A stretch of DNA of 61,667 nt from a virus (Duplodnaviria; Caudoviricetes). The stretch is from IMG/VR virus record IMGVR_UViG_3300005253_000118, positions 1-61,667 of that record; one strand, 5' to 3'. The stretch's first letter is position 1; every line of letters starts with the position of its first letter. Below, piece after piece: positions 206 through 53,839 of the stretch. The translations under genes were made by a program, and so were the position numbers. The notes beneath the pieces were generated by a model. That model was given only the letters and a program-made list of their open reading frames with translations, ran no database searches and was not told the origin of the DNA.

Positions 206-1009
206 TTATTTCCCTTCTGCAGGCGCTTGAGACGGCGCCGGCAAAAGAGGGATAATCAAAAGCTCGTCTGCAAAACCCATCTCAACAGCCTGCCTCCCGT
301 TGAAAAACCAGTCTTTATTTGCAATTTCAGCATCGATTTTCTCCTTGGTCATATTGCTTCTACTTGCCAAAAATTCATTGGCCATATCCTGCAACATCCG
401 CATAACCAAGGCTTCTTGTTCGCTGCTAGAAGGTGTTATTTTCTTCAAGAACGCCCAATATGCTATCTCGTGCCACATCAAGGTTGCTAAAGGAGAGACA
501 ATGCGTTTGTGTCCAGCAACGAATACCAAAAAGCCGGCAGACATTGCTTGCGTCTGGAGGCGAGTTATAATCTGTATTTTACCTACATACTCACCAATCA
601 CACTGGTAATGGCGTACCCATCGAAGGCAGACCCACCAAACGAATCAACATTAAATATGAGCTTTTTGGTTTTATGTCTGTAAAAATATTCAATGACATC
701 CCGGACATAGGAATCTTCAACATTATCAAAATCATACCAACCAACAGTTTCCCCATCTATGATTTTAAAGATTGCCCCACGAGGAGGATCAAACGCTGAA
801 AAAGGTTCTATTTCTTTCAGCCCCCAGGTAACTTTGCCATCTTTGTCTATTAATGTATGGCACGTTGTACAGTCGGCCACCTTGCCCTTGACTTTGGTGA
901 CAGGACATATGCCTCCATCATCTTTTTTCTCTGCTTCTTCTGCTGCTGGTACAGCTGTAAACACTAAAACAAACGATAGAATGATCAATGTTGTAAATAG
1001 CTTTTTCAT
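206..1009 (-). CDS. ClpP-like (S14) serine protease with N-terminal signal peptide and CxxCH motif
   Basis: Start at MKKLF with RBS AAGGAGAAAGG. Motifs DSFGGS, AMSAG (catalytic Ser), MWHE (His), KDWFF..QAVEMGFADE (Asp). CTTCH follows the signal peptide. Confidence 0.8.
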   Translation of the reverse strand: MKKLFTTLIILSFVLVFTAVPAAEEAEKKDDGGICPVTKVKGKVADCTTCHTLIDKDGKVTWGLKEIEPFSAFDPPRGAIFKIIDGETVGWYDFDNVEDSYVRDVIEYFYRHKTKKLIFNVDSFGGSAFDGYAITSVIGEYVGKIQIITRLQTQAMSAGFLVFVAGHKRIVSPLATLMWHEIAYWAFLKKITPSSSEQEALVMRMLQDMANEFLASRSNMTKEKIDAEIANKDWFFNGRQAVEMGFADELLIIPLLPAPSQAPAEGK

Positions 1010-2141: not shown

Positions 2142-2701
2142 TATGACACCCTCTTAAAAACCATCTTCCCAAAACTTATGCTTTTTGTGTTCCCTGGAAC
2201 GCAGACAATATAATCTCCTGCGATCAGATTCACCGTAGCGATAATCACACTTGTGTAGTTAGATTTTGCAGCATACTGAGAAACTGCCTTGAGATCTACA
2301 GTAAGTGCCCCGGACACAAGTCGAACATCACACGCCTTCTTGGCTCTGTTCTTGGTCTTTCGGAAGTACCACCTAATCTTATACTTCCCGGTCAATTTCG
2401 GGAGATACCAGACATGACCCCTACCACCATTCACATACTTTGTGTTGTAGACGTAGCGCTTATCACTTCCGGGCCAATATCCAAAGGCAACTGCTCCGAA
2501 ACGCCTAAACTGTGGGTTGTCCCCAGAAGGGCTAAACTTGGTTGACTTTTCCTTCCCAGTGAACTTGTCTACCCAGATGGTATGGGTTTTAGGGCCAATC
2601 GGACCCGGCTTAGGTGGTTCCGGTGTTACTCCTGGAACCTTTTGCAGGATCTCCCAACCACACTTAATGCACTTTCCAATAACCTTATTTTGTATCGCCA
2701 T
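2141..2701 (-). CDS. Basic protein with possible golvesin/xanthan-lyase CBM-like C-terminal domain
   Basis: W.LPKLTGKYKIRWYF....NRA pattern resembles golvesin C-terminal domains; N-terminal CxxC and Pro-rich linker. Confidence 0.4.
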   Translation of the reverse strand: MAIQNKVIGKCIKCGWEILQKVPGVTPEPPKPGPIGPKTHTIWVDKFTGKEKSTKFSPSGDNPQFRRFGAVAFGYWPGSDKRYVYNTKYVNGGRGHVWYLPKLTGKYKIRWYFRKTKNRAKKACDVRLVSGALTVDLKAVSQYAAKSNYTSVIIATVNLIAGDYIVCVPGNTKSISFGKMVFKRVS

Positions 2702-2720
2702 TTCTTACTCCTTTATCGGC

Positions 2721-2885
2721 TTAGAATGGGAGCATTGAGAAGTCCCCTAAAATCTCAGTACTCATACATTCAGTTGTCACCGTTCCCACTTCCTTACACT
2801 GTCTAATGCTTATCCGCTGTGGACCGGCACAGGCTATAAGGGTAAAAGTAAGCATGATTAATACGATCATCAGTTTCTTTTTCAT
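2721..2885 (-). CDS. Small lipoprotein, o-spanin candidate (54 aa, not in ORF track)
   Basis: MKKKLMIVLIMLTFTLIAC (lipobox LIAC) AGPQRISIRQCKEVGTVTTECMSTEILGDFSMLPF; ATGA overlap with the upstream coiled-coil gene. Confidence 0.6.
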   Translation of the reverse strand: MKKKLMIVLIMLTFTLIACAGPQRISIRQCKEVGTVTTECMSTEILGDFSMLPF

Positions 2886-3409
2886 TCTTCCTCTCCTTTC
2901 AATTCCAGTTGTGCAATCTTGGCATTGGCCTGTTTGATTTTTTCTTCAAGCTCTATCTTCTCAGTCATCAATTCCTGGGATTGAATCAGCAAAACGCCGT
3001 ATTTTTGATTCAGCTTTTCCAGGTTGCTCGCAAGATGTACAATTTCATCGTTAGATTGCCCGAGCTTTTCCTCATACTCCTTTACCTTCTTGCTCGATTG
3101 CTCATTAGCCGCCTTCAATTCCCCCATCAATCCCACCTTCTCAGCCGTTAGCTTTTGGGCTTGTTTCAACAACAAATCATATGTCTTTTGAAGTTTTTTG
3201 AGCTTATCCTCAACATTTAGCACACCTATTCGGGCCTGATGCCATAAACGCTCATAGGCATTCACCGTCTCTTCCAACTTTTCAATCTTCTGCTCTGGTG
3301 TGAGCGGCTTTTGCTCTTGGCCCCATCCCACTTTCGCAATGGCCACTATCACCAGAAATGCACCTATGACCATCATCATCCACAAGTTTTCTCGTAAGAT
3401 TCTCCGCAT
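2882..3409 (-). CDS. N-terminal TM plus long coiled coil, i-spanin candidate
   Basis: TM helix followed by heptad-rich region; directly upstream of a lipoprotein gene. Confidence 0.55.
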   Translation of the reverse strand: MRRILRENLWMMMVIGAFLVIVAIAKVGWGQEQKPLTPEQKIEKLEETVNAYERLWHQARIGVLNVEDKLKKLQKTYDLLLKQAQKLTAEKVGLMGELKAANEQSSKKVKEYEEKLGQSNDEIVHLASNLEKLNQKYGVLLIQSQELMTEKIELEEKIKQANAKIAQLELKGEEE

Positions 3410-3812: not shown

Positions 3813-5399
3813 TTAAAATCCAGTTGCGTAAACTCTATAAGTTATCCTTATGTCTACTTCACCACCACCGTCAGCAGTTTCGCCTGTCCCGGTATTGAAT
3901 ATTTGTAGACCTTGATTAATAGAGGCCTCTAAATCAGCACCCGCAGCTAAGGAATTCGGGTAATACCGAACCTCATCATCAGCTTGGTCAAGAAACGCAG
4001 TCGATTCAATGCTGGCCGTGGTATCCGTACCGTCCGCGTACTCAATAACAAAGTCCTCGTCAGCCCCTACGGTAAAAGCCGCTGACGCATAATCGTAGGT
4101 AATCATGGCAGAAACGAGTTTTATTATCGTGTTCGCGCCTTGGGCTGGTACAATTATAATTGGTGTCGCACGGAGAGCATTGACTTGGGCAGTCGTGAGA
4201 GTCATAACGGTTGCATTGAGCTTTGAACCATTCAGATCAACATCACCATAGGTGTTGATGGTAATCTCCATATTATAACTGGTAAAAGCCACACCCACGG
4301 ATGAGTAAGCCACAATACTCCCACCTCTTGATGCCGATAATGTCGCTGTTGTGGTAGACCCCACCGCCAGAACGTAATAGTTTGTGGAGGGGGAAAGATT
4401 GCCGCACAATGTACCTCCACCGGCAGCCACCTGTACCACATCATCTACGGCTAGACCATGAGCAGCAACAGTCTTTAACTCTACACCACTGTTGTCCTGG
4501 CAGACCGTAGCGTCCGTCTCGATTGTCCGGGAGGCTTCGGTTAGACGTTGGGCTTCAACCCCTCCGGCGATGAGGGAGAGGGCATCTCCGCCGGAATAAC
4601 CCATGCCGGTGTTAACATCATTTCTTTGTGATATTATAGTTGGATTACTTGCTGATGCTACTTCATTGAGCAATGCGGGACCAGTCCCCATTATGGCATC
4701 AACTAATCTACCCGAGGTTGTTTGCCAAATAGCTGTCCCATTAATGACTGTTATTAATGTATTATTGTTCGGTGCATACATGCCTGACTTCCCACTTCCG
4801 AACGCCCAAGTCGGTGTCACAGCGTCATTCTGCACCGGCAAAACAATCCTCGGTTCCCCACTTCCAGATCCGGATTCGATTATCAGAGGATCATTTATAT
4901 AGGTTATGCTCGCCGCTGAGATAGCCCCGGAGCTTGCATTCCGATCCAGGGTCACGGTCGTGTCAACCACCACCGATGCAACCCAGTAGGTTCCGACAGT
5001 GGCATTGGTCCCAGAATTGATAATAACCGCATCTCCTTCAGCCACACCATTGGTAGTGGCGACGGTCAGGACGGTTGGATTAGCGTCTGTTCCGGTGACA
5101 CCAGTTACTGTGGCTAAGACGTCTCCACCGAATATGACAGGTCTACCGGCAGCAAGGACGGCGTGGATTAGGCCGGCGGGAGTTGACGTCTCAAACCCTA
5201 CATTGCAGTTAATGAAATTAGCCTCATCAATTGTCTGGTCATCGAACTCTAGGTAGCAACCACTTGGGAGGAGGCCGATTTTACCGTCATCACTCATTTT
5301 AAACTTCTTGGAACTCGCCCCAAACGGCCCAAATCCCAAAGCAATCGAAGGGATTAAAACCAGAGCAAGTAGTATACTTAATATTTTAATTCGTTTCAT
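3813..5399 (-). CDS. Tail fibre/virion structural protein
   Basis: G/T/A/S-rich beta-strand composition; AHGL..DD.V...TNYYV repeats (FCCH-like small beta domains); DTG....GD.LSLIAGGVE fibre motif. Confidence 0.6.
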   Translation of the reverse strand: MKRIKILSILLALVLIPSIALGFGPFGASSKKFKMSDDGKIGLLPSGCYLEFDDQTIDEANFINCNVGFETSTPAGLIHAVLAAGRPVIFGGDVLATVTGVTGTDANPTVLTVATTNGVAEGDAVIINSGTNATVGTYWVASVVVDTTVTLDRNASSGAISAASITYINDPLIIESGSGSGEPRIVLPVQNDAVTPTWAFGSGKSGMYAPNNNTLITVINGTAIWQTTSGRLVDAIMGTGPALLNEVASASNPTIISQRNDVNTGMGYSGGDALSLIAGGVEAQRLTEASRTIETDATVCQDNSGVELKTVAAHGLAVDDVVQVAAGGGTLCGNLSPSTNYYVLAVGSTTTATLSASRGGSIVAYSSVGVAFTSYNMEITINTYGDVDLNGSKLNATVMTLTTAQVNALRATPIIIVPAQGANTIIKLVSAMITYDYASAAFTVGADEDFVIEYADGTDTTASIESTAFLDQADDEVRYYPNSLAAGADLEASINQGLQIFNTGTGETADGGGEVDIRITYRVYATGF

Positions 5400-5409
5400 A
5401 GTTTCTCCC

Positions 5410-5865
5410 TTACATCGTGTTGGGCACGAATAGTAATGTGACTATCAATATCGCACTATTAACCGCATTGTTTGTTATTGTAAGAATGTAATCTCCCACG
5501 ACCGGCTGGAGAGACGGCACCCCATCAATCATTGCATAGGACTGTTTGCTATCGGTATTGTGTATCAAGTCCGTTCCGTTACCGTCCAGGACATCAATTC
5601 CATGTTTGTCAGTAATCGTTAGGTCGGACGATACCGTTGGAGCCGTGGCTCCGGGGTTTACGATAATTTTATGTAGAAACCATCCTTGAATTAACTTTGT
5701 GAACGATGTGCTGTTACCAGGCGCTCCCTCTATGGTTCCAGTATTCGCTACTGGGAATGAAGCATCAGCTACATCAGCTATGCATGTAAATCTTAACTCC
5801 TTAATCGTTAATCCTCGTCCGGGTATTCCATGATTCTCAATACTTAGTTCTATTGTGCCTGCCAT
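5410..5865 (-). CDS. Putative virion structural protein
   Basis: Beta-rich, located in the structural module, good RBS. Confidence 0.5.
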   Translation of the reverse strand: MAGTIELSIENHGIPGRGLTIKELRFTCIADVADASFPVANTGTIEGAPGNSTSFTKLIQGWFLHKIIVNPGATAPTVSSDLTITDKHGIDVLDGNGTDLIHNTDSKQSYAMIDGVPSLQPVVGDYILTITNNAVNSAILIVTLLFVPNTM

Positions 5866-5941
5866 GTGCTATCTCCTTGTGTTCCAGCTTGGCTGTGGGT
5901 GGACTATTGCCATATCAGCCCACCCGATTATGATTTATTCC

Positions 5942-6529
5942 TTAAATGGCCACTTCTTCCCACATAAATGCGAAAAACAAAAACGCGCCAGATGCTAATA
6001 TACTATCGGTAGATATAATTCGGCCTGGAGCCAGAATGATACTCCCACCAAGATCAACCGGAGGGGTATTCGTCAATAAATCAGTCGTGAGATTCGTTCC
6101 GATCGTTGCAATGTGCTTTACAATAACAAGGGCTGACCCTGTAATTGTTGCCGCAGTATCCGCGATTGCCACTGATGTTTTATACGCATGACGAGTGCAA
6201 TACACGGTTAAATCGGCAGCATATCCAGAATGAACTGGGCCTACAGCAAGCGAAAGGTTAAGGTCTGCAGACGGGCTGTTATCAAGCGCCCAGCTAAATT
6301 CATGCATAATGTAACGCTTCCCGCTCGTCGCAGGATTAACAATTGCAAGACCTGTGAAAGTATTGTTCTTGGTTGTCGAAGTCCCAACATGTGTTTGTGT
6401 TGAAGCATAGAATAACCTACCTGCCATTGCCGCTTCGGCATATTTCCCACCAGTCGGAACCACTACTAGCTTACGATCATCCGTAATTAACGGGGCTTTT
6501 CCTACGCCCTCTGAAGTTTTTCCGTACAT
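5942..6529 (-). CDS. Putative virion structural protein
   Basis: Beta-rich; NPA.SGK and W.EV terminal motifs common in phage virion proteins. Confidence 0.5.
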   Translation of the reverse strand: MYGKTSEGVGKAPLITDDRKLVVVPTGGKYAEAAMAGRLFYASTQTHVGTSTTKNNTFTGLAIVNPATSGKRYIMHEFSWALDNSPSADLNLSLAVGPVHSGYAADLTVYCTRHAYKTSVAIADTAATITGSALVIVKHIATIGTNLTTDLLTNTPPVDLGGSIILAPGRIISTDSILASGAFLFFAFMWEEVAI

Positions 6530-6558
6530 AATAAGCTTCTCCTCTTCTTAATCTTAAA

Positions 6559-6786
6559 TTAAACTTCGCCCAATGCGTGTTTCCGTCTCAAGTCATCTTC
6601 CCACATACCGTCGTGATAAACGAACTCCTCTCCTGTGTCTACAAAATGGAGGGTTGACCCATCCGGGTATAAACTGATATCGCCTTTAAGTGGCTTTTCA
6701 TCAGATGAAATTCCTGAAAACCGTTGCTTTCCTCCACCGGGTCCACCGCCTACAAATCCTATTGGCATAATTCGCTTAATCGCCAT
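6559..6786 (-). CDS. Small virion protein
   Basis: G.S.D.KP...GS.....DTGE.F.Y....W motif typical of small phage structural domains. Confidence 0.55.
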   Translation of the reverse strand: MAIKRIMPIGFVGGGPGGGKQRFSGISSDEKPLKGDISLYPDGSTLHFVDTGEEFVYHDGMWEDDLRRKHALGEV

Positions 6787-6920: not shown

Positions 6921-9900
6921 TTATGCTGCTCTTTTAAAGCGCCGGCTTAATCGCTCGGCCTGTAATTTGCTTCGAGCCTTCCTTGAAATTGTTGAGAAAC
7001 TGATAATATCATCCAACCTACCAGCTTCCCGTTGTCGCTTATTGTAATCACGGATTTTGATTCTTAGTTTGAGCATTAAGCCGCTCTTTCCGAAACCCAC
7101 AATAAACTCATCAACAAACTCGTCAATCGTTCGCCTCTTGCTTGGATATGTTGACTTGGTATGCAAGCCAAGGCTTCTGCCAATAGCGTCAAAACCTTCA
7201 ATCTCTCCCTGCATCCAGCCTAAAAGGTTTTGTACCTGAACCGGTTGCATGCCTCTCATTTGCGTAAGAGCGTATGATAGGTACTGCCTGGGTGCAATCG
7301 GGCCGGTCTTTCCACCGAAAGCCGTTACCTTCCCGCCAAGTTTACCGCCCTTGGGTTGTCCTCTACGCCTGCCTGTGAGATACAGCCCCTTATCATCAAC
7401 ACCCAACATCTCAGGAAGGGTTGTAAATCCATGCCCCCTCCAATCAGTTCCAGCCATTGCTTCGTGAAATGTACGGTAGAGAACCGAGCCCTTGTGATGT
7501 GCCGAACGTACAGGGTGAGTTATAAACTTCATCGGGTCTTGGAAATGTCCGAATAGGCTGAAATATTTTCTCGCTTCCGTCTTGCCGCCCATCAGTTTAT
7601 AGATAGGTGTAATGTCAACGCCAAGCCATTTAAAATTACCGGCTTTCCAAGCCTTCCTGAATCGCTCTATGTTATCCTCATCATCACCGACTGCCATGAG
7701 CATGTTGGCGAGAATGGTGGCTGTGATGCCCTTGGTAAGCACGGAGGCCCAAAACCTGCGGTATAACGCCCGTTCTTCTTTACCGCCCCTCCCAACCATC
7801 TTCACCATTGTACGCACGTTCGATTCGGTCCAATCGGGTGCCAAGGCAAGAAGTCTAAATATGTGCTGTCTTGTCGGATCGCGCTCCATCCGTTCAAGGT
7901 TTAGTCCACCAAAGTCGTCATTAATAAGGTTCGATACCATCTTGGCACGCTCGGCTTCTCCCATCTCCGGGTGTCGTTTTAGAGCGTTCCGGTATTCAAT
8001 CAAGGCAGCCTGGGCCTTTAACCCCGCCCCGAAATTACCAAACAGAAAGTCAGCCTGTCGCTCTCTTAATTCGTTAACCTTATCTTTGACGGCCTTAGAC
8101 GCTTTAGTCTTATCCATAATCTTACCAAAGATAGTGTCCTCATTCCTGAGTATGGATTCCTCCCAATCCTGTACCTTGAATAGCGTTAAGCCGTTTCTAA
8201 CAAGCAAGGTGATGGTCGGGTTCAAGTCTTCAATGGCTTGCAATCCTTCCTTACGGGCCTGGTTGATGTTCCATTCCTTGAGAGTTTTACCCGTTGTCCC
8301 AAGGATGTATGAACGCATAAAAGCCAAGTGATGAAAGAACGATGTCTGTAATATCCAAGCCTTTATCAAGGCATTGTATTTCGTAGCGGTATCAATACCC
8401 TTTAACCCCTTGAGCCTTGATTGCCCTAAAATTCGGTTGAGGGATTTAGCTACTTCTGCAGGTGCATATAGCGGTACACGTTCCCACCCTATACCTCGTT
8501 CCTGTGTTTTGGCTTTCTTTAGGCTCAATAACCTGGCATGGAGGGCTGCAAGTCGTTTCTCTGCTTTCGGGACTGTCCCTTCTATCGTGCGCTGTACTTC
8601 AACTATTTTATTTTTAAGCCACGCCTGGGCTTCTTCTGGTGATTCAAACCCTGCTTTATGCGCGTTCTTTCTACCAGGGCTTACCAGCGCGTAGGTTTTC
8701 TCTATCCATGCGTTCCTACCGAGTTTATGTACCTTCCCCTCCTCGTCTGTATAGCTGTCTCTTGTAAAGCCGCCTTTTGTGGTTAAAAACCGATGGACTT
8801 TTGTCATATTGGGGTGTTCCAGCTTGACATAACCGGCAAGGTGGGATTTATCAGTCAACATCATCTCACCCGTGTCTTTCCATTCGGTTTCCAGAGCCAC
8901 CTTCTGCATGGCGGCGTCTTCCATTGTACGGGCAATCTCGTCTTTGTATGTTTGAAGATTCGTAGTCGCACCGTGAACCTGTAACTGGAATAGGTGCTCA
9001 CCAGCTTTATTCTTTAACGCCATACCCTCAAGTATGGTTTCGAACACTCGATGTTTCCGGTGTCGGGTTTTAACCCCGAACTTACGCATAGCTTCCGCAG
9101 CGAAACGATCCTCTTTCTTTAACGCTTTCCACGCACGGGAGACATAGTTATCAAGCATATTATGGATTAACCCTTGTCCGTAAGCCTTCTGCCCTATCTT
9201 CTCGTACTCTGCGCTGATATCGTCGGCTATTGCTTTAATCTCAGGCATAGTGTCGATCTTCTTGGCAATATCGGCTATCATCTTGTCTTCTTCGGTTAAA
9301 TCCTGATAATACATATCATAGTGCTCAGGGTTGCGTTTCAAATCAAGATAGATATGAATTGCAGAATCAATATCTTTGGCTGCCCGGTCATACCGCTTTT
9401 TGCCCAACGCTTTTATTATGCGTTTCTGTAGCCTGCGGGCTTGAACAGCGTTTCTGTATAACTCAACGTGCTTCTTTCCCAACCACCAATCCTTGATATT
9501 AGCGAACGCTGGGTCTTGCTCTGCTTTCTTAGGTAGAATCTTGTCAATAAGGCTCTGCTTCCGGGGCTCCTGAATCTCCTCGCCAATATCCTCGACTTTG
9601 TATTGAGGCGCAAGCCCACCCTTTTGGGTTACAGCCTGTCTCCCCATGATCTTCCCAGACTCGATATCTTTAACAATCCCTCTCGCTGTCCGGATCCCGA
9701 ATACATTCACAACGGCGTCCAGAAAATCCGCTATCTTCTTGAGTATCTTCTTAATGCCGAAGTTCTGTACATCACGGGTAAGAAAGGCTCTTTCAATGTA
9801 CTCAGCCCTTGCCTCCGAACTCGGTTTCTTGCCCTGTTTGAGAATCGCTTTGTTCAGTACGGCAACATCAACAGTATTGATAAGATTATTAGCCTCAAAG

Positions 9901-26346: not shown

Positions 26347-27363
26347 TTAAGCGGTTTCTTCTTCTGTAGCCATAAGCCGGTGAAGTTTAGCGACTTGCTC
26401 GTCACTCATGTCTTCAATCTCATCGGACCTGTCGGCAATTTCGTCCAAGGTAAGCGTACCCTTCGTTCCCTTCTGATTTCTCATTTGGGACAGATTGCTT
26501 GCCTTTCCAGCGATTTCCTTTAAATTGGCCGCCGCTGTTTTGTCACCACCTGGCGTTTCCGTACCCGCGACACTCTTTAATGCTATACGGAGGTCGCGTT
26601 TGCCGTCATACATTCTGACAGCACGCTCCATGTCGAGCCCTGGAAACTGTTTGTTAAAATCCGATTCAATATTCTCACTTTCAGCTACATCCAACGCTTC
26701 GCCGGTAGACATTATCCCGCTCAGATCGTTAGCCTCTTGGTATCTGATAATTTTATCGTTAAACCAATCGGCCGCCTTCTGTAGTTGATTGTGTGCTGAA
26801 GCATACGCTGGGTCTTCCCCAACTATTGACTGTACCGTGTCTTGAAACCCCTGCTCTTGCTGTTGGATAGCCATGTTTCGCGCCATCTGGTTTTTGATCT
26901 CTGTAACATCTTCCTTACTCGCACCTGTCGCGTGCGAAGAGGCTAAAAGGGCTTTCAGGTTGTCATCAATGGGTATAAAAGCTGCGCCATCATCATCAAC
27001 CTGAACAGCAAGTCGATCGATCTTTGGCGATTCTGCCTTTTTTTGGTCAGCGAGTTCTTCCCGCCGTGCCATTGATTCAGAGAACACGTCCGTAATTCCC
27101 TGCATTTTGCCTTCTAACTCCTGCCGTTTGCCTCTCTCGGCTTTCATGGACTCGTATAAGCCCTTGTTTTCCTTTTCCAGATTTGCGAAACGATCTTCCA
27201 GTGTCGGCTCGTCTTCCTTATCCTTCTTTTTATCGGGATCGTCGGGATCCTTACCGTCGTCTAAAAGACTATCCATTTCTGCCTTGCTCTGATCCTCTGC
27301 CGCTTTTTTTAATTCCTCGTCTGTCATGTCTTCTGTGTTAAGTGTTTCTTTTTCTTTTGCCAT
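26347..27363 (-). CDS. Capsid scaffolding protein
   Basis: Acidic coiled coil with ER.KRQE motif and C-terminal MSDE; upstream of MCP. Confidence 0.75.
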   Translation of the reverse strand: MAKEKETLNTEDMTDEELKKAAEDQSKAEMDSLLDDGKDPDDPDKKKDKEDEPTLEDRFANLEKENKGLYESMKAERGKRQELEGKMQGITDVFSESMARREELADQKKAESPKIDRLAVQVDDDGAAFIPIDDNLKALLASSHATGASKEDVTEIKNQMARNMAIQQQEQGFQDTVQSIVGEDPAYASAHNQLQKAADWFNDKIIRYQEANDLSGIMSTGEALDVAESENIESDFNKQFPGLDMERAVRMYDGKRDLRIALKSVAGTETPGGDKTAAANLKEIAGKASNLSQMRNQKGTKGTLTLDEIADRSDEIEDMSDEQVAKLHRLMATEEETA

Positions 27364-27435: not shown

Positions 27436-27483
27436 CAAAAAGCCCGACCAGAGACTTGTATCGTGTCTCTCTAATCGGGCTTC
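27436..27483 (-). terminator. Stem-loop with U-tract upstream of scaffold gene
   Basis: AAGCCCGA...TCGGGCTT followed by TTTGTTTTTT on the minus strand. Confidence 0.55.
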
Positions 27484-27571
27484 TTGGTAGGCAGATAATA
27501 AACCTCAAAAAAACTATCTACGCCCAGGTAAGAACCTGTGTTTAACTCTGAATTTTATTGTCGGATCTTCG

Positions 27572-27700
27572 CTCACCGTGGGGGAATTGAACCCCCGGTC
27601 CTACTTTGCACGCTGAGCCTTACCCCTTGCGGGAACCACGTCTATGCTCTCAACAACGGGCTATGCAAAGCGTATCGCTTTACCTTTAAGCTATCGGTGA
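27572..27700 (-). ncRNA. tRNA-like RNA with expanded anticodon arm
   Basis: Acceptor TCACCG/CGGTGA, D-arm GCTT-AAAGGTA-AAGC, T-arm GGGGG-TTCAATT-CCCCC; anticodon loop replaced by a ~50-nt insert closed by CTTTGCA/TGCAAAG. Confidence 0.65.
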
Positions 27701-27765
27701 ACTCCCCGACAAATTGTTTTTGGGCCGGTTGTGCGCCCGGTTTATTTAATCCTTTATATTTTAAT

Positions 27766-27867
27766 CAGCATGTGCCGGAATTGAACCAGCAAGGACCATC
27801 CGTTACATCTGGACTCGAACCAGAAACCTGTGGGTAGCTATTTCCCACTTTGCACCAGGGCACGCTG
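27766..27867 (-). ncRNA. tRNA-like RNA with two T-arms
   Basis: Closing stem CAGCGTG/CATGCTG; GTGGG/CCCAC arm; T-arms TCTGG-TTCGAGT-CCAGA and GCTGG-TTCAATT-CCGGC; no proper D-arm. Confidence 0.55.
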
Positions 27868-28088
27868 CCGTTATTTCCTCTTGGCTAATCTTTTACGTTC
27901 CCCTCCCTTATGTCGGGAGTAGTTAACCCTAATTCTTTAGCTTTTTTTAGGATATCATCGTTATATTTTCTCATTGCCTTGCCATGCTTAATAAAGTATT
28001 GTATGACAATAGCCTGTGTTTCTGGGGATATATAAAACTTATCCATTCCGTTTCTCCCTCTTCAGCCTAGCCTTAACTTCCCTATATT

Positions 28089-50231: not shown

Positions 50232-50549
50232 TTATCGGTATTCGCCGTATATTAAAGCATACCTTCGTTTGAATTTATTCATTGCCTGAGAGCAAATTTG
50301 CCTCGCTCTCTCGGATGAGAAACCAAAATGAACGCCGATTTCAACAAGCGATTGAGCGTAATATCCGTGGTCTAATTTCCCAATTGGAAGCCCCGCTTCA
50401 ATCCTTCTTTTCCTTTCAGCGGCTTGCTTGCGCTTATAATACCTTTTTTGCGACTCTTTAAAGGCGTCTTCCGCGCAAAGCAGGCAATATTTCTGACGAT
50501 TCGGCGCCTCAACCGGGATAGGGTATCCGCATGTTTCGCATTGTCTCAC
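50232..50549 (-). CDS. Zn-finger plus sigma-region-4 HTH regulator
   Basis: CETCG..KYC..C; SL.EIG..FG.S.ER.RQI...A..K. Confidence 0.65.
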   Translation of the reverse strand: MRQCETCGYPIPVEAPNRQKYCLLCAEDAFKESQKRYYKRKQAAERKRRIEAGLPIGKLDHGYYAQSLVEIGVHFGFSSERARQICSQAMNKFKRRYALIYGEYR

Positions 50550-50746
50550 TATTCTTCAACAAACTCGTTAAACGAGTCTCTTAAGCCCTCCAGCAGCTTG
50601 TCGGCTTCATCCACAGTGTGCATATTAAGTACCACCCATTGCATACCCATTGGTGTTATGTCAGGGTCGCGCATATCCCAAGTCATGGCCGCTACCAAGT
50701 CCGAGACAGCCTCAATAGCCTCATATAGCGCCTCAGCGGTTTTCAT
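50549..50746 (-). CDS. Hypothetical protein
   Basis: Coupled ORF with RBS. Confidence 0.45.
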   Translation of the reverse strand: MKTAEALYEAIEAVSDLVAAMTWDMRDPDITPMGMQWVVLNMHTVDEADKLLEGLRDSFNEFVEE

Positions 50747-50771
50747 TACGGTTTCCCCTTATCTTTACAAA

Positions 50772-50970
50772 ATTATGGGAGGCAGGATTCGAACCTGCAC
50801 GAGAGCATTATGTGACTATACCAAGATCAGACTTGGGTAGTATCTCTCTTCCACTATAGCGTCTATCCAATGACAAGCCTACACGGTGAGAAACGCGACC
50901 AAAGGAAGGAAGCTCTCACCTCATCACCTCCTACCGCTCCTCGGCTTGTCAATTCCGCCACTCCCATAAT
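50772..50970 (-). ncRNA. tRNA-Leu-like RNA with D-loop hairpin insertion (copy A)
   Basis: ATTATGGGAG/CTCCCATAAT stem; TGGCGGAAT[TGACAAGCC...GGCTTGTCA]TTGGATAGACGC; T-arm GCAGGTTCGAATCCTGC; no anticodon loop. Confidence 0.7.
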
Positions 50971-50975
50971 AGTTT

Positions 50976-52292
50976 TCAGCTCCCCTCCGCAATCCGATTC
51001 ATTTCGACCTCAACACTTTTTGCCTCGTCCGGACTGTCAGGATATTCGCCTGCCACCGCAAATACGGTTTCACAAGCCTGCGCGTAAACATCTTCACCAA
51101 GATTCTCCCTGGCTTTTGCGAGTCCTACAAATTCGGGGGCAAGAGACGGCTTATCAGGATCCACGAACTCGGCATCAACCAAGTCCCCCTTTTTCTCGGA
51201 CGGCCCAGCAACCTCGGCCACAGGGAATGGCTTGTCTGGGTAAAAACCGCCCCACTTTTTAATCGCTTTGGCCTGGAGCGGAACAGGAGCATCCTTGAAC
51301 GTGTCAAGGTTGTCAGAAACAAACTTTGCGAATCCTGAAGTGAGTCCGTCACCTTTTCGGGTTTTCCACCATTTCGGCTGATCCCACGGCCCTCCATAAA
51401 TAATCATTTCCTCCTTTTTGGCTTTTCCCGTTTTATCTTTGGGAGGCGTTAGCTTGCTCCATGCTTCGAAATGAGCCCAAAGCTCCTCAAATTGAGCAAC
51501 GCCCTCGGCTTTGAACTGTTCGACGGACATCGGAGGGGTTTGCGCCGCCGCTAATTCTTTCAGGTATTTGTCAAGAGCGGGATCCGGCGGGTAGTTAATC
51601 TTTTCCGACACAAGCCGATCAAACTCCTCGGGTGTGTGTCCGACTTGCCCTTCTTCATATATTCCGTCTTTACTGAGTTCAAAATCGATGGGTTCTGGCA
51701 GCTCTTCCGGTATATAAGCGGTTCCGATAGCTCCGCCCCATAGCGCAGAAAGCCCCTGGCTCTCGACGACCTTCATAATCTGTGACGGCTGTTTTTCTGG
51801 TTTCCAAAATGCTGTTGCCGAGCCCTCCTGCGTTTTCCCGATGTATCCGGTGAGGTTGATTTCAAGCTCGTAGGGCACGATCCAGCCGTCTGGAGTGGCC
51901 TCAAAGTAAGCGCCGACAAGCGTCTCGCCTTCTAAAACCAAACCCTTTGAGCGTTTTGTCTGTCCTTTTTTATCTATCAGAATCAGACCCTTTGACCATC
52001 CCTTACAGTCAGCCTGGGCTCTTGCTTTGGCCCTTTTGTGGTGTATGCTTTCCACAATAGCTGCGTTACCTGTCCGACTATATTTAATGAGCCAGCACTC
52101 CTTACGGAATGGGTCCAGCCGGCGGGCCTTACATTCGGCCATAAACATGATCGCCTCTGGGTCGGTCACATATTCCGATTTTCCCTGGACCAGATAATTT
52201 TTCACCATGGAAATAGTGAGCCTCATTTCGTCCCCGTTGGCCATTGTGTAGGACATTTCTTTTTCTGCTTTTGCCGGTAAACTATGTGTCAT
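50976..52292 (-). CDS. RecT/Bet-family single-strand annealing protein
   Basis: Likely start MTHSL; F...CKAR.LDPF.KE..LIKY, W...P..I.KV.ESQ.L motifs. Confidence 0.8.
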   Translation of the reverse strand: MTHSLPAKAEKEMSYTMANGDEMRLTISMVKNYLVQGKSEYVTDPEAIMFMAECKARRLDPFRKECWLIKYSRTGNAAIVESIHHKRAKARAQADCKGWSKGLILIDKKGQTKRSKGLVLEGETLVGAYFEATPDGWIVPYELEINLTGYIGKTQEGSATAFWKPEKQPSQIMKVVESQGLSALWGGAIGTAYIPEELPEPIDFELSKDGIYEEGQVGHTPEEFDRLVSEKINYPPDPALDKYLKELAAAQTPPMSVEQFKAEGVAQFEELWAHFEAWSKLTPPKDKTGKAKKEEMIIYGGPWDQPKWWKTRKGDGLTSGFAKFVSDNLDTFKDAPVPLQAKAIKKWGGFYPDKPFPVAEVAGPSEKKGDLVDAEFVDPDKPSLAPEFVGLAKARENLGEDVYAQACETVFAVAGEYPDSPDEAKSVEVEMNRIAEGS

Positions 52293-52324
52293 GTGATTGT
52301 CCTCCTTTGATTTTTTTAGGAAAG

Positions 52325-52357
52325 TGGGGAATGTCGGATTGCCTTCCGACACTCCCC
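52325..52357 (-). terminator. Stem-loop ending the ncRNA cluster
   Basis: GGGGA.TGTCGGA...TCCGACA.TCCCC. Confidence 0.55.
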
Positions 52358-52362
52358 GATCG

Positions 52363-52435
52363 TTTGTATAGTTGGAATTGAACCAACGACAGTCAGATTA
52401 CAAATCTGATGCTCTACCAATTGAGCTATATACAG
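52363..52435 (-). tRNA. tRNA-Thr(UGU), AU-rich acceptor, no encoded CCA
   Basis: D-arm GCTC-AATTGGTA-GAGC; anticodon arm TCAGA-TT-TGT-AA-TCTGA; T-arm GTTGG-TTCAATT-CCAAC; C1/A72 mismatch. Confidence 0.75.
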
Positions 52436-52446
52436 AATTGGTGGCT

Positions 52447-52601
52447 ATTCTTTTCTTTCGCTGTACGCATGATCTCAGTTTTAGTGATCTGCGTCCTGCC
52501 ATTAGACGATCTCCCCATATGGTGTTTCTGAATGGCGGAGAGACCAGGATTCGAACCCGGATTACAGTCATTGAATCACACGCCAGTTAGTGAAAAAGAA
52601 C
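52447..52601 (-). ncRNA. Circularly permuted tRNA-like domain (YrlA-like or permuted tmRNA-like)
   Basis: T-arm CCGGG-TTCGAAT-CCTGG, TCTCTCC-G-CCA, 16-nt linker, then GGGGAGA-TC-GTCTAATGGCAGGAC; flanks pair into a long stem at the anticodon position. Confidence 0.7.
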
Positions 52602-52774
52602 ATTGCCTGAAGCTGTAGGGCAATACGATGAGTTTGATTTTGGCATTTATGTAATGCCATTTATTAAGCTAATGCTGAAGCTAAAGCTGGCCCTAAATTG
52701 TTATTATCAAGTAATTAAGCGCCGCATTGATTTACCTGTGAACAAGATGCGACATTTCTTGAGTACAAGATATG

Positions 52775-52952
52775 TTGGTCCAGGCAGGATTCGAACCTGC
52801 AAATGCCTGCTCCTATACAACCATGATCTATGTACGGAATCGAACCGACTCGCAAACAGGCTTCCAGATCTTTTTTATTATTCGCGTCTACCAATGACAA
52901 GCCCACGGTAATTCTATGAGGTGCCAGCTTGTCAATTCCGCCACTGGACCAA
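52775..52952 (-). ncRNA. tRNA-Leu-like RNA with D-loop hairpin insertion (copy B)
   Basis: TTGGTCCAG/CTGGACCAA stem; TGGCGGAAT[TGACAAGC...GCTTGTCA]TTGGTAGACGC; identical T-arm; nested second T-loop CGG-TTCGATT-CCG. Confidence 0.7.
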
Positions 52953-52957
52953 ACTAA

Positions 52958-53092
52958 GCGGGGAAGCAGTGTCTGAGGACCTTACAACGACTTATTCCAA
53001 AGCACTGAGCTTCGGAGGCGATTCGGAACCCCGCCGCATTATCCTCGTTGGCGGTCAAAGTTCTATAAGGTATACTTCTACCGCTTCCCCAC
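52958..53092 (-). ncRNA. Multibranch structured RNA immediately after stop codon
   Basis: 13-bp outer stem GTGGGGAAGCGGT/ACTGCTTCCCCGC; inner ACCTTATA/TGTAAGGT; hairpins CCGC/GCGG and TCCGAAGC/GCTTTGGA. Confidence 0.55.
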
Positions 53093-53095
53093 ACT

Positions 53096-53839
53096 TTATC
53101 CATGAATATAAGTGAACAGTTCTTCACCAATAGAAGTGTCCACAACCTCTGTCGAATTGGCCCGCTGTCGAGCCTGCTTTACGGCCCGGAGCAGCTTTCT
53201 TATCCGGCCTACCAGAATATTCTTCTCTGCCGTACTTATCAGGCCTACCCAGACTTCTTTGATTTTTCTTCCGACATTTTTAGTCTCGGGGATTTCCTTT
53301 ACTTGGGCCGGATGTTCTTTTGTTGCTTCATATAACACCTGGGCCTTGAAGATCTTCTCGGTTTTGAACACTACTTCATCATCCACAACAGCCCAAACGT
53401 GTTCGCCCCGGTTTTTATCAGGCTCCCATTTATAACCAGGCGCCAAGGTGGGGGCGGCCTCATACACGCTCAGGATCGCCCTCAATTTGGTTTCCAGGCC
53501 AAGTAAAAATGTTGCCGGGACATCCTTTGCGATCGCGGTCCCATCAATAAGGATGTCAGCCCTTGCCTCCTGATTTGTTCTCTCTTTCTGCAAAACCGCA
53601 TCGAGATACCGCACAGCGTGTTCTCTTTGCACGGCAAGTGACTCATAGACGGTCTTCGTCATTTCGCTATGCTCATGCGGAGCTTCCGGGGCGTCCTCGT
53701 CAAACATTTCAGTTCGCTTGTGAAACCCAAGGAACAGGCCGACCTGTTTTATAAATTCCGCTTTTGTGTTCTCCAGGGCAATCTTGTGAGCGCCCTCTAA
53801 TTCTGATTCCACAGCTAATACTTCGTGAAGTTTTGGCAT
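53096..53839 (-). CDS. Conserved uncharacterised protein (recalled as DUF7873-like; needs HMM check)
   Basis: Start MPKLHEVLAVE with RBS AGGAGG; N..ARAD...DG.....VP.T.LL.LE, EAT.EHPAQV, L..AVK.AR..AN motifs. Confidence 0.7.
   Translation of the reverse strand: MPKLHEVLAVESELEGAHKIALENTKAEFIKQVGLFLGFHKRTEMFDEDAPEAPHEHSEMTKTVYESLAVQREHAVRYLDAVLQKERTNQEARADILIDGTAIAKDVPATFLLGLETKLRAILSVYEAAPTLAPGYKWEPDKNRGEHVWAVVDDEVVFKTEKIFKAQVLYEATKEHPAQVKEIPETKNVGRKIKEVWVGLISTAEKNILVGRIRKLLRAVKQARQRANSTEVVDTSIGEELFTYIHG

Follow-up and report, generated by a model that had tools for sequence, protein, structure and literature searches.

The complete virus record IMGVR_UViG_3300005253_000118 (61,667 nt; this whole stretch of DNA was analysed and is called the window here) encodes two tRNA-shaped units on its minus strand, copy A at 50774-50967 and copy B at 52776-52950, which probably represent phage-borne non-decoding RNAs built on the chassis of a leucine transfer RNA (tRNA-Leu) and equipped with exchangeable structured domains (rough probability 0.55). 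The chassis, which comprises the acceptor stem (7 bp) stacked on the T stem (5 bp) together with the T loop, the D stem and the GG of the D loop, is under selection, and it offers two plug-in sites, one in the D loop just before GG and the other comprising the entire position of the anticodon arm. That both copies belong to a selected family of structured tRNA mimics had been suggested by a first-pass annotation of the sequence and is borne out by the compensated acceptor stems, by 19 hairpin-bearing units with 14 acceptor sequences and by a covarying hairpin base. Overall, more than 140 distinct units were recovered.

Both copies retain several parts of a normal tRNA, namely an acceptor stem with all 7 bp paired, UG at positions 8-9, a D stem of 3 bp and a T arm, and in both of them a Leu-type D loop is interrupted by a hairpin immediately before GG (all positions given for A and B refer to the minus strand). 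The acceptor stem of copy A is formed by ATGGGAG (50961-50967) and CTCCCAT (50775-50781), its D stem by GCG/CGC, and the T arm (50782-50798) as well as a discriminator A are present. Its D-loop hairpin of 81 nt (50871-50951) is a long imperfect stem-loop with -35.4 kcal/mol when folded alone, and direct reading of its base gives the pairs U-A, G-C, A-U, C-G, A-U, A-U, G-C, C-G and C-G. Instead of anticodon and variable arms there is a middle segment of 60 nt (50799-50858), which contains an inner hairpin closed by a 5-bp helix (GAGAG/CTCTC) and no 7-nt anticodon loop. Copy B combines the acceptor strands GGTCCAG (52944-52950) and CTGGACC (52777-52783) with a D-loop hairpin of 40 nt (52895-52934), a middle segment of 83 nt (52801-52883) including an additional T-arm-like hairpin (T-loop motif at 52836-52846), and a T arm (52784-52800) identical to that of copy A. 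Pairing at the termini amounts to about 10 bp in copy A (50771-50970) and 9 bp in copy B (52775-52952).

Most of what the first-pass annotation had reported about the two copies could be confirmed. All strings described as common to A and B are present in the alignment, and the acceptor stems indeed differ and still pair fully, as five of the seven pairs are changed, all with compensation, and seven of seven are kept. The inserts differ in length as stated, loops and middle segments being the variable parts, and both copies lack an encoded CCA as well as an anticodon arm of 5 bp with a 7-nt loop. The claim that a canonical Leu D loop is restored by removal of the insert was right as to type and normal length, but copy A keeps one extra A.

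In the A/B region, ARAGORN as well as Rfam at gathering score detected only an ordinary tRNA-Thr(TGT) at 52362-52435 (70.8 bits), which belongs to the same minus-strand cluster, and neither copy was called by ARAGORN. When RF00005 was applied with a permissive threshold, copy A reached 18.3 bits compared to a gathering score of 29 and copy B gave no match. A full match to an existing Rfam family was thus not found, and the family matches only the generic tRNA model. The T-loop motif GGTTCRANTCC occurs eight times in the window (0.19 expected), and from this excess and the same frame in homologues it follows that copies A and B are more than chance resemblances. The DNA runs containing the stretch are labelled marine sediment metagenome, and related contigs from sediment metagenomes share the ends of A or B with a swapped middle segment. 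Contigs of runs X3 and X4 carry 37-40 other letters in place of the middle segment of copy B (joints 52798/52801 to 52884), and copy B and one contig of run X4 differ within the hairpin loop (52910-52927).

Relatives were retrieved by patterns and fixed strings, without a covariance model. When viral contigs were scanned for D loops of Leu type interrupted by 20-50 nt, 13 matches emerged, all of them family members. Their common frame runs from the acceptor through the split D loop and a variable middle segment to the T arm and the matching 3' strand of the acceptor. Further scans of viral and metagenome contigs raised the number of distinct hairpin-bearing units with this frame to 19. In each of the 19, all 12 pairs of the acceptor and T stems are kept, despite 14 different acceptor sequences and at least three pair types at every acceptor position. 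A T is found at position -1 in 15/19 units and a discriminator A in 13/17 distinct scaffolds. Bacterial RNase P prefers U at position -1, and the T at this position together with the kept 12-bp stack of acceptor and T stems would fit RNase P substrates. When the same pattern was used for prokaryotes (one genome per species, 185,579 species), 55 matches were obtained, with a single member in a Bacteroidales metagenome-assembled genome (L072). A tRNA frame is present in 14 of these 55, of which 13 are ordinary tRNA-Leu genes with a partial copy of their own 5' end in front of them. With 13/13 members among the viral matches compared to 1/55 among the prokaryotic ones, the family is essentially viral. 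An exact 16-mer scan of viral contigs yielded one true relative (L004) in 30 matches, the others being chance hits mostly in apparent coding sequence, and among GenBank phages (50,697 records, blastn sensitivity) the A/B region was matched through the tRNA-Thr only.

The D-loop hairpin was analysed in an alignment of the 5' parts of 13 units, from which copy A was excluded because MAFFT misplaced its long insert. Eight pairs form the hairpin base, six of them changed on both sides, and 88% of the cells are paired, with a covariation score matched by none of 500 shuffles, although kinship among the sequences can inflate such counts. When the partner columns were slid as a control, pairing was 27-50% compared to 88% in the true register. 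Several hairpin types exist, one of which (type 2) has a conserved apical sequence of 23 nt on a covarying stem. All 12 occurrences of this core in viral contigs lie inside D loops of family units, and its conservation across at least five different acceptor stems suggests that the hairpin acts in the mature RNA, where, from tRNA geometry, it would protrude at the outer corner of the elbow as an expansion segment. The hairpin is also an optional module, since near-identical units occur with and without it: L045 and L202 are the same unit save for a 38-nt hairpin and two substitutions, and L037 (with hairpin) and L206 (without) have a common middle segment and differ in three acceptor pairs, all compensated.

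Such presence or absence between near-identical units would also be expected if decaying tRNA-Leu pseudogenes had been hit by a small mobile palindrome targeting the D loop, as a DNA-level event with no RNA function. The hairpin ends resemble short inverted repeats, and repeated TTG flanks in many units point in the same direction. Pseudogenes, however, would keep neither 12/12 stem pairs in 19/19 units across 14 acceptor sequences nor compensated changes in hairpin base and middle segments. A palindrome is also difficult to reconcile with the type-2 core being found in D loops only (12/12), or with the type-1 hairpin base, which occurs just twice in its own genome and for which a metagenome scan gave one real copy (L250, again in a D loop) and 20/21 matches in unrelated sequence. 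We therefore regard this explanation as quite improbable. Assignment to a class of mobile palindromes, of miniature inverted-repeat transposable elements (MITE) or of elements resembling repetitive extragenic palindromes (REP) was likewise rejected, as copies at unrelated sites with target-site duplication were not observed. The TTG duplication at the insert ends, noted in the first-pass annotation, is neither a general feature nor, as a rule, a target-site duplication: the outer T pairs with the A before the second TTG (U-A in 13/13 aligned units), and hairpin-bearing units of the sister clade described below have other flanks.

The hairpin might alternatively be one of two intervening sequences in true tRNA-Leu genes, removed after transcription, whether spliced out or excised in the manner of RNase III with the ends left unjoined. 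Removal of the hairpin leaves a Leu D loop of normal length, hairpin-free relatives exist, and RNase III, which requires a long duplex, could in principle cut that of the copy A hairpin. But when the hairpin was removed computationally, 0/21 units became normal tRNAs, a normal anticodon arm is missing from the hairpin-free relatives as well, and the intron mode of ARAGORN proposed inconsistent anticodons. No group I or group II intron was matched by Rfam even at a permissive threshold, and the length of the inserts, 35-81 nt, leaves no room for the catalytic core of either. The phage looks bacterial, judged by its RecT, P22-type portal and gpA-type terminase, and neither a splicing endonuclease nor an RNA ligase was found in it. 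An archaeal-type bulge-helix-bulge (BHB) intron, in which a 4-bp helix with a 3-nt bulge on either side marks the exon-intron borders, was considered and rejected, as inspection revealed that the hairpin base is one continuous helix from the border onwards and the genes are those of a bacterial phage. Taken together, intervening sequences are a very improbable explanation, and the D-loop intron offered as an option by the first-pass annotation finds no signature of group I, group II or BHB type.

A second set of relatives has a fixed acceptor stem. A scan with the constant 3' end gave 156 matches at no fewer than 136 loci, 133 of them with a matching 5' strand within 250 nt, and this sister clade comprises at least 129 distinct units of 54-182 nt with up to seven per phage tRNA array. 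The array of L101, a 104-kb record, contains seven units among ordinary tRNAs, which agree in acceptor stem and T arm and differ in their interiors, and only one of the seven has a D-loop hairpin. This array gave no match in the GenBank phages searched. A Leu-type D arm is present in most of the listed units, and here the D arm lies outside the search pattern. ARAGORN called 26 of the 129 listed units with motley anticodons, some of them of 2 or 4 nt, and many units exceed the RF00005 gathering score with 34-44 bits. Annotation passes such units as odd or pseudo tRNAs or misses them, by which phage tRNA counts are inflated or distorted.

The interiors themselves show no common sequence. Among the middle segments of the 129 listed units no shared k-mer was found, and TGGAAG, which had been put forward as a motif common to A and B, is present in both copies but amounts to one shared 6-mer, about the number that chance would give for segments as long as these (60 and 83 nt), and is no motif of the family. 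Close relatives, however, show compensated stem changes beneath conserved loops within their middle segments (four pairs in u026/u030 and five in u074/u079/u087), indicating that the interiors are structured RNA under selection and not debris. Like copy B, L045 and about eight listed units of the sister clade contain a second T-arm-like hairpin within the middle segment. The acceptor/T part of a tRNA is the one recognised by RNase P, by the enzymes of 3' processing and CCA addition and by many tRNA-binding proteins. As this part is kept and the codon-reading part is replaced, we read A and B as non-decoding scaffold RNAs, in agreement with the motley anticodons of the sister units and the absence of normal tRNAs after hairpin removal.

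Both copies are read on the strand of their neighbouring genes. The gene content of the window is that of a tailed bacterial phage and, besides the genes already named, includes a capsid protein, a DNA methylase and a DUF5131 protein. Copy A starts 5 nt past the stop of the RecT-like open reading frame (ORF; 50976-52352) and is followed after 27 nt by the start codon of the next ORF (50549-50746) on the same strand. The units in L033, L040, L041 and L042 are likewise located shortly upstream of an ORF start. A search of the minus strand around A and B for promoters and terminators gave no match, which lends weak support to co-transcription with the flanking genes.

This arrangement could also reflect cis-acting punctuation, in which the units mark the sites where the polycistronic transcript of the phage is cut by RNase P and RNase Z, and the excised RNA has no role. 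Precedents for such cuts are the tRNA punctuation of mitochondria and MALAT1/mascRNA. The wedging of copy A between two same-strand ORFs, the position of the four units upstream of ORF starts and the lack of a promoter or terminator match nearby are all consistent with it. Punctuation requires only an acceptor/T minihelix, though, and leaves unexplained the compensatory changes within the middle segments, the conserved apical motif of the hairpin and the arrays of seven units, which are sited among tRNAs that are processed anyway. As the whole explanation we consider it unlikely, but it is compatible with scaffold RNAs and both can coexist.

For the non-decoding RNAs preferred here, transcription, processing, stability and an effector role can be outlined as follows. 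The units would be transcribed within phage operons or tRNA arrays and excised by host RNase P and 3' processing enzymes, which we propose because the tRNA part read by these enzymes is intact. They may then receive CCA and persist as stable L-shaped RNAs, in which the D-loop hairpin would remain as an expansion segment and not be lost as an intron, and the plug-in domains would be the effector parts. Leucyl-tRNA synthetase (LeuRS) does not read the anticodon, so the units may even be charged. Our guess for the effector parts is a decoy or sponge for host factors that grip the tRNA body, for example tRNA-cleaving defence nucleases, which is attractive because tRNA-directed defences exist. The variable loops had also been suggested to act as guide or cargo. 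A guide function was not supported for the phage's own minus-strand transcripts, since the longest antisense stretches were 11 nt for A and 12 nt for B and shuffled sequences gave 10-16 nt; a role as cargo is possible. More tentatively, phages might use the tRNA-Leu chassis as a display platform for fast-evolving RNA domains, decoys or aptamers against host factors, with the host tRNA machinery excising, finishing and stabilising the units, and new specificities could then arise by insertions and deletions and by module exchange between paralogues in arrays.

Several observations weigh against scaffold RNAs of this kind. The terminal helix of 8-10 bp in A, B and several relatives may hinder or shift RNase P cleavage, so that processing at the boundaries is not assured and some members may stay in the messenger RNA. 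The middle segments fold only modestly better than shuffled sequences (mean z -0.76; 28% below -1). No gene for an RNA-acting partner was found near the units, whether in the window (47 ORFs scanned) or in 32 kb surrounding the seven-unit array, and the runs containing the stretch comprise DNA only and no RNA run. Finally, motifs of the D and T arms were part of the search patterns, so their conservation is partly built in and not independent.

Other features were noted around the arrays and in the window. Inside the tRNA array of L101, a freshwater-1 RNA (RF02979) was detected at 514-576 (+) with 72.3 bits compared to a gathering score of 72. An ORF resembling a GIY-YIG homing endonuclease, recognised by eye from its translation, lies in or near this array at about 2380-2990 (+), and a further one was identified by Pfam in L275 at 5862-6647 (+), near the tRNA array of the 104-kb record. 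A recent paper connects the GIY-YIG enzyme SegB with the amplification of tRNA regions in phages (PMC13096335). L275 encodes GTP cyclohydrolase I and a QueF-like protein of the 7-deazaguanine pathway (4039-4713 and 8492-9439, both +) roughly 10 kb upstream of the array with seven units, and sigma factors are also encoded in the 32 kb around this array. In the window, a strongly folded element of 158 nt is located at 27555-27712 on the minus strand (z -4.39; 0/200 shuffles fold as well), with a long terminal helix, an 8-bp acceptor-like stem, a normal-looking D arm, a structured middle segment of about 80 nt and a T arm. It was called neither by ARAGORN nor by Rfam at gathering score. The ORF at 26347-27363 lies downstream of it, and behind the element comes a hairpin resembling a terminator (27436-27486). 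Just upstream of the element, at about 27740-27875 (-), two T-arm-like hairpins (T-loop motifs at 27777-27787 and 27811-27821) may belong to a further acceptor-framed unit without a normal D arm.

tRNA mimics with a known role are few, namely transfer-messenger RNA (tmRNA), YrlA and the viral 3' tRNA-like structures, to which the present family adds a widespread phage-encoded class. A and B resemble tmRNA in having a tRNA acceptor stem and T arm and a large foreign insert where the anticodon arm would be; tmRNA relies on a synthetase that ignores the anticodon. In contrast to tmRNA, they have no tag reading frame, and their D arm is complete and of Leu type. Searches with the models of tmRNA and permuted tmRNA (RF00023, RF04321) reached 15.2 bits at best compared to 47 required, and ARAGORN reported no tmRNA. 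Another likeness is to the intervening sequences of bacterial 23S rRNA, which are excised by RNase III and, similar to the D-loop hairpins, are optional stem-loops that sit at defined places of a conserved RNA and can be missing in one of two close relatives.

YrlA is a non-decoding RNA which also occurs in phages and in which a tRNA-like T arm, a D arm, an acceptor-like stem and the residues for tertiary contacts are kept, and for at least one member cleavage by RNase P and addition of CCA are documented (PMC4201824). Its acceptor-like stem is closed by a loop and its ends form the Ro60-binding helix at the anticodon side (PMC4201824), whereas the ends of A and B form the acceptor stem. The Rfam model of YrlA had no match in 50500-53300 even to E = 10, and none of the 47 ORFs scanned in the window is a TROVE/Ro60 gene. 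The YrlA order of parts was seen in element C only (52455-52600, minus strand), which is located between copy B and the tRNA-Thr and consists, in this order, of a T arm, an acceptor 3' strand ending in GCCA, a linker of 16 nt, the acceptor 5' strand that matches the 3' strand, and a tRNA-Gln-like D arm. Its outer flanks can pair, its fold is not significant (z-score -0.75), and it scored 14.7 bits with permuted tmRNA. Element C could be either a permuted YrlA-like RNA or the remains of two tandem tRNAs, and dimeric tRNAs are described as able to imitate the YrlA part order (PMC4201824).

RNA C and RNA D of phage T4 are also small stable RNAs from a phage tRNA region (PMC3014915), likened here by description only. 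Their ends would be tRNA-like. In full-text searches of the literature no description of the family was found; a survey of structured RNAs in IMG/VR (PMC10690425) gives tRNA-like candidates in general terms, and its supplementary tables may list the family. In design, A and B are similar to engineered tRNA scaffolds, in which a foreign structured RNA at the position of the anticodon arm is processed and stabilised by the cell. Scaffolds are a laboratory device, whereas the phage units are natural, diverse and phage-encoded, with only the tRNA half recognised by processing enzymes and many tRNA-binding proteins being kept and the remainder free to vary. If expressed, they would be the natural counterpart of the engineered tRNA scaffold and a candidate for an RNA-level arm of the conflict between phage and host over tRNAs.

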